Made by a program: the position numbers and the translations under genes. A stretch of 64,000 nt of DNA from the NCBI RefSeq assembly GCF_055900595.2, contig NZ_CM148325.1, one strand, 5' to 3'. Position 1 is the first letter of the stretch. Each line of letters opens with the position of its first letter. The notes below the pieces were generated by a model. That model did not search any database and was not told the origin of the DNA. It was given only the letters and a program-made list of their open reading frames with translations. This document shows positions 10,472 through 16,989 of this stretch, piece after piece.

Positions 10472-10930
10472 TTATAGAGACAAGTCCTGCAGTCGCTCCG
10501 ATAAGTCTCCGGTAGCCAACTGCTCTGCGTCGATATCTTCCTTGACCTGTTGATGCCAGGTTGTTTCATCCCACAGCTCAAACTTGTTGAACTGTCCAAC
10601 CAGCATCACTTCTTTTGTCAGCCCGGCATGTTGCCGCAGTACTGGCGCGATTAATAATCGACCGGCGCCATCCATCTGACATTCGCTGGCATGACCTAAC
10701 AGAAGGCGCTGCACACGGCGCTCAACCGGGTTCATGCTCGACAGACGCGATAATTTTTGCTCGATAATTTCCCATTCAGGCAGGGGGTAAAGCAGCAGGC
10801 ACGGGTGATGAATGTCAATGGTGCAAACCATTTGACCGGCAGCGTTCTCAAGCAGCTGTTCCCGATAACGGGTAGGCACTGATAAGCGCCCTTTGCTGTC
10901 GAGATTGACTAACGTTGCTCCCCGGAACAT
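10472..10930 (-). CDS. mraZ: MraZ, transcriptional regulator of the dcw cluster
   Basis: ORF-track frame 10472..10966 is N-extended; start [19 protein letters not shown] gives 152 aa. First gene of the dcw cluster. Confidence 0.93.
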
Positions 10931-10949
10931 GCCAGCCTCACCCCTTATT

Positions 10950-11040
10950 CCCACTTTGCCCCACAATTTCCCACTGAAAGGAGTTTACGGAGCGGAGGAA
11001 AAGCTTGTCAAGCCAGTCACAAGGCATACCGAGGTAAAAA
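10950..11040 (-). promoter_or_regulatory. mraZ/dcw promoter region with three direct GTGGG repeats (MraZ operator-like)
   Basis: Reverse complement of 10950-10976 is GTGGGAAATTGTGGGGCAAAGTGGG: three GTGGG repeats with 5-nt spacers just upstream of the mraZ start. A TTGACA-N17-GTAAAC promoter-like element lies further upstream on the same strand. Confidence 0.7.
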
Positions 11041-11530
11041 ACCCGATGTTTACGGCTAATATCAGCGTTGTTTATTTTACGTCCAACGTGCGAAGCAAAT
11101 TAACGTTATGAATAGCTGTAAGAAAAAATCCCTCATGGTCATCACCGTTTTAAAATGACTAACTATTTTCCACAGCAAATATAAAGTGTCAGTTTGCGAC
11201 GCGAGCGGCATTTTAGGACATATCTTCCCCAGTTAACAGTCCCTGTTGCGTCTGTGTGGCGCTTGATGCCAGCAGGTTTGCGCAAAAGCAAAGAAAAGTG
11301 TTTGTTAAATCGGCAATTCATCTCTGCATGTAACAAAATAATGCAAAAACGCTCTGTCAATATTGCTTAATTATTGTGAATTTCAGCAGGTGAGTTAATT
11401 AATGGGCGGGTTTAAAAGCATTTATCAATAATAGCCAGGAATAGTCTTATTTACTTTAAGGATATTGATGTCCATTCCCGTACTCGACGCGCCAATGAGA
11501 AATTCACTGGCGCGTATTTTTGTTCGCGGC

Positions 11531-12535
11531 TTAGTTACGGCTGAGCACGCCGCGGCGATAGAGATTACGTTTAATGCGCGTTAACCCAGGTTTTGGCTTA
11601 CGCGGTTCGTCCAGGCTTGCCAGGACAATTTCCAGCACACGCTCTGCGACATCGCGGTGACGTTGAGCCACTGCCAGCACCGGGCACTGTAAGAAGTCGA
11701 GCAGTTCGTTATCGCCAAAGGTGGCAATTGCCAGGTCAGAAGGCAGTTTGCCATCGCGACGCAGCGTGACATCCATCACCCCTTGCAACAACGCAAACGA
11801 CGTTGTGAACAGCGCCTGCGGCATCGGATGCGTTTCCAGCCATTTTTCGAATAACTGGGCAGCCGCCTCCCGCTCATAACTGTTGGCATAAAGGAAATGC
11901 ACTTCGCGCGGATCATCTTTCCAGGCAGTACGGAAACCTTGCTCACGCAAGAAGCTCACAGAAAGCTCCGGCAGCGCGCCAAGATAAAGCACCGTCTCGG
12001 CGGGAAACTTACGTAACTCTTCCGCCAGCATTTCGGCATCATCCTGATCGGCACCAACCACGCTGGTGAAGTGTTCACGATCGAGGGCGCGGTCCAGCGC
12101 GACAATCGGGAACGGGTCGTTAGCCCAGCGTTGATAAAAAGGATGCTCTGGTGGCAACGACGTCGAAACAATAATGGCATCAACCTGACGCTGTAGAAGA
12201 TGCTCAATACAACGCATTTCGTTGTCTGGCTGATCTTCTGAGCAAGCAATCAGCAGTTGATAACCCCGTTGCCGCGCCTGACGTTCAAGATAATTAGCGA
12301 TGCGGGTATAGCTGGTGTTCTCCAGATCGGGGATCACAAGACCAATAGAACGTGTGCGTCCAGCACGAAGCCCAGCTGCCACGGCGTTCGGGTGGTAATT
12401 GTGCTCACGCACCACAGCCATGACTTTTTCAACGGTTTTGTCGCTCACACGGTATTGCTTCGCTTTGCCGTTAATAACATAGCTTGCAGTGGTCCGCGAC
12501 ACTCCCGCTAGCCGAGCGATTTCATCCAGTTTCAC
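11531..12535 (-). CDS. cra: Cra (FruR), catabolite repressor/activator, LacI family
   Basis: 334 aa [37 protein letters not shown]...; N-terminal HTH plus periplasmic-binding-protein-like fold. Confidence 0.95.
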
Positions 12536-12659: not shown

Positions 12660-12690
12660 GCAAAAAAAGCCCAACGTGACATGTTGGGCT
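12660..12690 (-). terminator. Intrinsic terminator downstream of ilvH
   Basis: Minus-strand RNA forms AGCCCAAC-ATGTCAC-GTTGGGCT followed by a 7-U run, about 25 nt after the ilvH stop. Confidence 0.7.
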
Positions 12691-16961: not shown

Positions 16962-16989
16962 AACCCGCGCCATTGCGCGGGTTTTTTTA
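16962..16989 (+). terminator. leu attenuator (intrinsic terminator)
   Basis: AAAACCCGCGCCATTGCGCGGGTTTTTTT: GC-rich stem plus T-run between leuL and leuA. Confidence 0.92.

Follow-up and report, generated by a model that had tools for sequence, protein, structure and literature searches.

In the 64 kb stretch of Escherichia coli DNA analysed here (hereafter the window), the cra (fruR) coding sequence ends next to a hairpin whose run of T residues lies on the strand opposite to that of the gene, and this raises the question of which transcript ends there. The cra gene appears in the list of open reading frames at 11531-12535 of the minus strand, with a 100% match to the annotated cra of E. coli genomes, and its stop codon is a TAA at 11531-11533 of the same strand. 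According to the same list, mraZ lies at 10472-10930, also on the minus strand, to which the ilvIH, cra, mraZ, rsmH, ftsL and ftsI genes of this E. coli window belong. A first-pass annotation had stressed that the only genes flanking the hairpin are on the minus strand, which our coordinates for cra and mraZ confirm, and had proposed that either cra termination is non-canonical or a plus-strand transcript ends at this place. The next transcription unit downstream is that of Pmra and mraZ, from which the 3′ end of cra needs to be insulated. Our promoter scan places Pmra, the promoter of mraZ, at 10982-11011 of the minus strand (TTGACA-18-TAAACT, PWM score 13.4), and the Cappable-seq start site at K-12 position 89590 corresponds to position 10974 of the window.

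The region between the two genes has attracted little annotation. The RefSeq annotation of K-12 places no feature between cra and mraZ, an Rfam scan of 10800-11700 returned noise only, our search of the literature on terminators and intergenic sRNAs at cra/mraZ or fruR/yabB found nothing specific to the locus, and the O157 studies that we looked at leave the cra-mraZ locus unmentioned.

Sequence and folding of the hairpin

The GC-rich hairpin with a plus-strand T-run that had been reported after the cra stop codon is indeed present, at 11488-11524. On the plus strand, it consists of the inverted repeat CGCGCCAATGA-GAAAT-TCACTGGCGCG at 11488-11514, with the arms GCGCCAATGA (11489-11498) and TCACTGGCGC (11504-11513), the loop GAAAT (11499-11503) and an extra C-G pair (11488/11514) that closes the stem, and it is followed at 11515-11524 by TATTTTTGTT. 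The hairpin starts 17 nt 3′ of the cra stop codon, and in the sense of cra it reads CGCGCCAGTGA, loop ATTTC, TCATTGGCGCG, with one G.U pair in the stem. The arms and the loop are as first described, but the perfect pairing implied for the plus strand does not hold. The pair 11495/11507 is an A.C mismatch in plus-strand RNA and a G.U wobble in minus-strand RNA, and the stem of the window strain forms a perfect, G.U-containing helix in the cra-sense RNA only. Accordingly, the 25-nt hairpin folds with a dG of -12.0 kcal/mol on the plus strand versus -15.9 kcal/mol on the minus strand (z scores against shuffles of -4.4 and -5.9, respectively). The 27-nt hairpin at 11488-11514 reaches -14.4 kcal/mol on the plus strand despite its one A.C mismatch, enough for the GC-rich stem-loop of a terminator.

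The two flanks of the hairpin differ in what they offer to each strand. Directly after the stem, the plus strand carries TATTTTTG, which has 6 T in 8 positions, a T-run score of 3.2 and, with these, the U-tract of an intrinsic terminator. Read in the sense of cra, the same stretch (TATTTTTGTT on the plus strand) is the A-rich run AACAAAAATA (11515-11524, minus strand), which lies directly 5′ of the hairpin and is the source of its reverse-terminator look. The tail on the other side, GTCGAGTACGGG (11476-11487, minus strand), lacks a U-tract, as had been noted at first: there is no U-run in GUCGAGUACGGG, and the minus-strand tail GUCGAGUA has 2 T (U) in its first 8 nt, too few for an intrinsic terminator of cra. 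We also considered a two-way terminator and rejected it, given 6 A in the 8 positions before the hairpin and 2 T in the 8 positions after it (cra sense).

As a separate observation, an outer RNA helix could enclose both the A-run and the hairpin at 11476-11530 of the minus strand, pairing CC.CG.AC with GU.CG.GG in E. coli (CCGCGAAC/GTACGGG) and ATTACG with CGTAAT, in six perfect pairs, in E. whittamii. It is suggestive in these two lineages and absent in E. albertii, and we consider its reality doubtful.

To judge how often such a site would arise by chance, both strands of the 64 kb were scanned under strict settings (hairpin of at most 30 nt, dG of -12 or lower, T-run score of at least 3). 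The scan returned four sites in the window, including 11488-11514, whereas 30 dinucleotide shuffles averaged 0.57, and the terminator look of the plus strand is therefore a real feature of the sequence. The other sites were at 16964-16981, which reads as a terminator on both strands, and at 21776-21754. The window also holds normal terminators that are useful as internal comparisons: ilvH is followed by a canonical one at 12669-12689 of the minus strand (GCCCAACATGTCACGTTGGGC + TTTTTTTG), and 16964-16981 is a compact hairpin with T-runs on both strands, that is, a textbook two-way terminator. A different calculation applies if the cra hairpin is taken as pre-existing. With a frequency of A of 0.3, the calculated chance of an A-rich 8-mer in front of it is about 1% per lineage, and over the roughly 30 genera compared below it rises to about 0.3.

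Transcript ends in K-12 and the termination of cra

Where cra transcripts end can be read from the tables that Yan et al. 2018 (PMC6131387) obtained by SMRT-Cappable-seq. This method captures full-length RNAs with a 5′ triphosphate, and for a TTS call it requires 10 or more reads with the same end position, significantly above random. The tables list a transcript of cra (b0080) only, from a TSS at 87968 to a TTS at 89082 on the forward strand of NC_000913.3, flagged novelTTS. The start agrees with the Cappable-seq site at 87969. The homologous K-12 hairpin spans 89049-89076, so that primary cra transcripts end 6 nt past its stem, at the equivalent of window position 11482; by this homology, the cra mRNA of the window strain is expected to end at about 11482, a few nucleotides after the stem. 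If we have read the columns of the table correctly (their meanings were deduced from other rows), 94 reads start at TSS 87968, 20 end exactly at 89082, 6 end near it and 24 pass it, going on by a median of 119 bp, which leaves them within the spacer. These figures come from one dataset and one growth condition.

Mapping of 3′ ends had been named at the outset as the way to check the site, and published K-12 tables bear on it: those of Yan 2018 contain the cra-sense end at 89082, and neither Yan 2018 nor Adams 2021 contains an end on the opposite strand. More precisely, the tables of Yan 2018 have no reverse-strand TTS at 89040-89049, and the Term-seq tables of Adams et al. 2021 have no 3′ end on either strand in 83641-89783, an interval that includes cra itself. 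The latter absence is a weak negative, given the low expression of cra. The locus is likewise missing from the TERMITe supplements.

A transcript end of this kind fits a class that has been described in E. coli. Dar and Sorek 2018 (PMC6061677) found that the 3′ ends of Rho-dependent mRNAs lie just after stable stem-loops without a U-run, with C exceeding G downstream, and proposed a model in which termination occurs diffusely downstream and is followed by trimming to the stem-loop by PNPase and RNase II. They also proposed that terminators can switch between Rho-dependent and intrinsic through their U content, and they found the U-less class not to be associated with upstream A-tracts. The discrete 3′ end of cra, right after a stable U-less stem-loop, is what defines this class. 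In addition, the cra-sense C/G ratio is 1.7-3.0 in 60-nt windows between 11460 and 11361, which gives an excess of C over G by composition, and the cra-mraZ spacer has a GC content of 41%. On these grounds of composition, we propose 11361-11460 of the minus strand, which is untranslated, AT-rich, richer in C than in G and located 40-150 nt downstream of the hairpin, as a candidate zone for Rho loading and termination.

The hairpin is thus most likely the ordinary stem-loop with which the E. coli cra mRNA is capped at its 3′ end. We also think it probable, with a reasonable margin for error, that the element at 11488-11514 of the minus strand (assigned from its folds and from homology to K-12 89049-89076) is the 3′-terminal stem-loop of a monocistronic cra mRNA, a U-less structure to which the RNA is trimmed back after its release downstream, probably by Rho. 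With no U-run behind it, the hairpin itself would probably not stop RNA polymerase efficiently, and the enzyme would run on into the untranslated, AT-rich spacer with its excess of C over G, where it would be released, probably by Rho. The 3′-to-5′ exonucleases PNPase and RNase II could then shorten the tail as far as the hairpin, which would from that point protect the cra mRNA. Rho release followed by trimming appears to be the most likely mechanism because a U-less stem-loop with a discrete 3′ end, a zone of C over G and read-through that ends in that zone occur together. The protective stem-loop model for Rho-dependent mRNAs was reportedly first proposed by Peters et al. in 2012.

The hairpin after cra across the Enterobacteriaceae

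We examined the sequence after the cra stop codon in 80 species of Enterobacteriaceae (82 loci from about 30 genera). A stable, GC-rich hairpin lies 3′ of the stop codon in nearly all of the 82 loci, at a distance of 5-30 nt in most genera and of up to about 50 nt in Klebsiella and Raoultella, and its sequence turns over between genera. About 50 of the loci, including those of Salmonella, Klebsiella and most Citrobacter and Kluyvera, have the hairpin without a run on either side, and the U-less hairpin is the form most often met after cra in this set. The textbook form, with a cra-sense T-run after the hairpin, was found in 23-26 loci, for instance in Franconibacter (AAAGGCGGC...GCCGCCTTTTTTT). 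Nine of these have the two-way form (A-run, hairpin, T-run), and they come from Atlantibacter, Franconibacter helveticus, Dryocola, Phytobacter ursingii and several loci labelled Enterobacter or Lelliottia. An A-run alone is present in eight loci, two of which are borderline, with 4 T after the hairpin, while the other six are the Escherichia lineages: the window strain, K-12, Escherichia sp. MOD1, E. albertii, E. whittamii and Escherichia sp. E1V33. In the sense of cra, every Escherichia shows 1-3 T among the 8 positions after the hairpin, and all six lineages keep at least 4 A next to it, even though the flanking bases have strongly diverged.

These tallies indicate that the element conserved in position is the hairpin at the end of cra, and that the reverse polarity is specific to Escherichia. 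Given that the hairpin is kept and the U-run is variable, it is likely that the mode of termination switches between intrinsic and factor-dependent from one genus to another, and the pattern that can be read from these genomes would be the terminator switch proposed by Dar and Sorek. With regard to the first-pass annotation, its suggestion that cra termination is non-canonical therefore finds support, both in the K-12 end at 89082 without a U-run and in the prevalence of U-less hairpins, with the qualification that such ends form a class already described and are no anomaly. The A-run, for its part, could be what is left of a two-way terminator such as several genera still have after cra, or could be due to chance. 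Its retention across Escherichia hints at some constraint beyond what the explanation by the cra 3′ end covers.

We rejected the identification of the hairpin as a REP element because it is single-copy, occurring at one place per genome in the 4,119 genomes with a match. In Citrobacter koseri, cra is followed by the insert GCCGGATAAGGCG, which we take to be REP-like, and E. coli has no such insert.

Strand under selection and allelic variation in Escherichia

Whether the structure matters as cra-sense or as antisense RNA can be approached by folding a fixed segment, the 70 nt after each cra stop codon, on both strands. The cra-sense RNA was more stable by 3.0 kcal/mol on average (67 loci versus 13), and the controls showed hardly any asymmetry or none, the corresponding values being -0.01 inside the cra coding sequence and -0.66 further into the spacer. 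The nominal p value of 1e-10 overstates the case because the sequences are related, although the direction is clear.

The alleles of Escherichia, taken from 16 metagenome contigs and from sister species, point the same way. Both E. albertii and a metagenome allele, L089, carry CGCGTCAG, which gives a U.G pair in the sense RNA and a C.A mismatch in the antisense RNA, with sense and antisense dG values of -18.8 and -13.1 for L089 and of -20.4 and -11.0 for E. albertii. The stem of E. whittamii shows a compensatory change from C-G to U-A, and the K-12-type and MOD1 alleles fold equally on both strands. Pairing is thus not maintained on the plus strand, where the transitions of the window allele, L089 and E. 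albertii are mismatches, and is preserved as G.U in the cra sense. At the level of sequence comparison, this establishes that the hairpin is selected as a cra-sense RNA structure.

Within E. coli, the A-run is itself polymorphic, being A5 in K-12 and A4G in B2-type strains such as Nissle 1917. The K-12 form, A5, was found as an exact match in 3,170 of 5,426 complete genomes and the A4G allele in 438, with 1,282 more genomes within 1-2 mismatches of the latter. In the B2-type allele, the plus-strand T-run is TACTTTTGTT, and its U-tract, TACTTTTG, is weaker. The hairpin allele of the window strain (12-bp stem, 5-nt loop) is rare, with exact matches in 18 of the 5,426 complete E. coli genomes, and 18 is also the number of genomes that agree with the entire spacer at 99% or more. 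We also observed that the top of the hairpin is a local hotspot of variation, with four substitutions and one indel relative to K-12 within about 12 nt of a spacer that is about 98% identical overall.

Promoters and conserved sequences in the cra-mraZ spacer

Cappable-seq of K-12 maps four cra-sense TSSs in the spacer, at 89143, 89237, 89360 and 89590, which correspond to 11421, 11327, 11204 and 10974 of the window (minus strand). Our sigma-70 PWM recovers three of the four (at about 11325, 11203 and 10975), and on the plus strand of the spacer it finds one moderate candidate, with a score of 7.8. Because there are four start sites in the same sense, the 600-bp spacer can be regarded as a multi-promoter region that feeds mraZ or makes short upstream RNAs.

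Several other sequences in this region deserve mention in their own right. A motif at 11438-11449 of the minus strand, TAAGACTATTCC, lies 70-115 nt after the cra stop codon and is conserved far better than the hairpin, given that the pattern T.[GA]GA....TC[TC] is found there in 80 of the 82 loci and in 3% of shuffles (family consensus TTAAGATAATTCCTTA). It agrees at 12-13 of 14 positions with the published RcsB box, TN(G/A)GAN4TC(T/C)NA, and is a candidate site by sequence match; most loci lack the final A, and the strict match is present in 9 of 82. Relative to a mapped cra-sense TSS, the motif occupies positions -28 to -15, within its spacer. A small hydrophobic open reading frame, MTMRDFFLQLFITLICFARWT, is found at 11077-11142 of the minus strand, downstream of the TSS at 11204, and its FFLQ(I/L)F(I/M)TLIC stretch can be made out in at least 40 of the 82 loci. 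It is probably not a protein, given that its start and stop are not conserved and that variation by codon position is 16/6/21. Since variation is not concentrated at third positions either, the stretch is probably conserved regulatory DNA upstream of Pmra. Between Pmra and the start of mraZ, at 10935-10975 of the minus strand, there are three direct repeats, TGGGA/TGGGG/TGGGA (GTGGGAAATTGTGGGGCAAAGTGGGAAT), which match the reported MraZ operator repeats.

Alternative explanations

The other possibility raised at the outset, a plus-strand transcript that ends at the hairpin, finds no support: we found no annotated gene or RNA family, no opposite-strand 3′ end in the tables of Yan 2018 and Adams 2021 and no plus-strand promoter above chance in the spacer. 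The hairpin and T-run would be competent in sequence, and any plus-strand polymerase that reached them would probably terminate. The simplest form of the proposal is that the hairpin and TATTTTTGTT act as a reverse-facing intrinsic terminator, possibly in addition to their role for cra, and shield the gene from antisense transcription and head-on collisions with polymerases that start on the plus strand at weak or spurious promoters in the AT-rich spacer. Such a terminator would account for the agreement of the site with the definition (-14.4 kcal/mol, 6 T in the first 8), for its rarity (four sites versus 0.57 expected) and for the retention of at least 4 T beside the hairpin in all six Escherichia lineages despite their diverged flanks. 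Escherichia sp. MOD1, where covarying bases lengthen the stem and UUUUGUU follows directly, and the K-12-type alleles, in which both strands fold equally well, are also compatible with it, and a spacer of 41% GC that is rich in promoter-like sites could supply the polymerases. However, the highest score of any plus-strand promoter in the spacer is 7.8, at which 0.7 sites are expected by chance; Yan 2018 shows no opposite-strand 3′ end at 89040-89049, and Adams 2021 has none there either. Furthermore, the T-run is frequently altered within E. coli (TACTTTTGTT in the B2-type, with 438 exact and 1,282 close genomes), the antisense hairpin is crippled by a C.A mismatch in L089 and in E. albertii, which keeps the A-run, while the sense hairpin remains intact, and the polarity with an A-run only is absent outside Escherichia. 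We therefore regard this role as unlikely. A stronger version, which we find quite improbable, would make the Escherichia hairpin a dedicated one-way barrier in the reverse direction: the cra-sense U-run would have been lost, cra would have been left to Rho, and the A-run would be under selection, being kept so that antisense transcripts from the promoter-dense, AT-rich spacer are terminated before they enter cra. If this were true, two co-directional units would here be kept apart by a natural reverse insulator. An unannotated sRNA or antisense RNA gene on the plus strand that uses this terminator would explain the terminator-like 3′ module, and a weak Rfam match to Spot 42 does exist at 11427-11521 of that strand, but its 15.6 bits, against a gathering score of 80 and with E = 3.9, are noise. 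No promoter above chance lies 30-300 nt upstream on the plus strand, K-12 has no annotation at the site, and the sequence upstream of the putative RNA end is conserved as cra-sense promoters with mapped TSSs, all of which leaves such a gene very improbable indeed. An open reading frame on the plus strand at 11465-11584 (39 codons, TTG start) was rejected as a gene; it overlaps the 3′ end of cra and has no support.

A rival of another kind concerns cra itself, namely that weak, non-canonical intrinsic termination takes place at the hairpin, possibly with the help of NusA or NusG, and that neither Rho nor trimming is involved. The discrete 3′ end lies 6-7 nt after the stem, which is the distance expected for hairpin-driven release, and of the reads that get as far as the hairpin, about half end at or near it (26 versus 24 that pass, on our reading of the columns). 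A true cra-sense U-run is found at the same place in many genera, and intrinsic termination is consequently one of the states after cra in the family. Efficient intrinsic termination by E. coli RNA polymerase, however, requires a U-rich tract, and only 2 of the 8 nt that follow the stem are U. Reads that get past the hairpin stop within about 119 bp, which suits a diffuse, factor-dependent release. We consider this mode of termination rather unlikely in Escherichia and continue to favor a stem-loop to which the cra mRNA is trimmed after release downstream.

Relevance and comparison with known systems

The element after cra is unannotated, yet it belongs to a class that has already been described, and a published high-throughput table already lists its 3′ end; its recognition matters little beyond annotation. 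Nevertheless, cra, a global regulator of carbon flux, gains a defined mRNA 3′ end, which explains its separation from the essential dcw (mraZ-ftsZ) cluster downstream, and the locus offers a small, clean example of a hairpin whose position is conserved and whose U-run comes and goes between genera. It also calls for caution in terminator calls made from sequence alone, in that a hairpin with a T-run on the wrong strand can be a by-product of an A-rich stretch beside a sense RNA structure.

Among known systems, the REP and BIME palindromes resemble the cra hairpin in being GC-rich, extragenic palindromes that occur at gene 3′ ends and can stabilise mRNA, but the cra hairpin is single-copy and lacks the REP consensus. 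With canonical intrinsic terminators it shares a GC-rich hairpin of typical size and energy and, on the plus strand, a T-run with 6 T in 8 positions, the difference being that, for the only genes at the Escherichia locus, the U-run lies on the wrong side. Bidirectional terminators combine an A-run, a hairpin and a T-run; the A-run and hairpin half of this arrangement is present after the Escherichia cra, which has no cra-sense T-run, and the flanking genes are co-directional and not convergent. The closest parallel is provided by the protective stem-loops of Dar and Sorek 2018 (Nucleic Acids Res 46:6797), with which the cra hairpin has in common a GC-rich stem-loop before a discrete 3′ end without a U-run, an excess of C over G downstream, a gene of low expression and a longer read-through species. 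It differs from them in the A-rich run directly upstream of the hairpin and in that, for cra, the action of Rho and the trimming are what we infer from these shared features.
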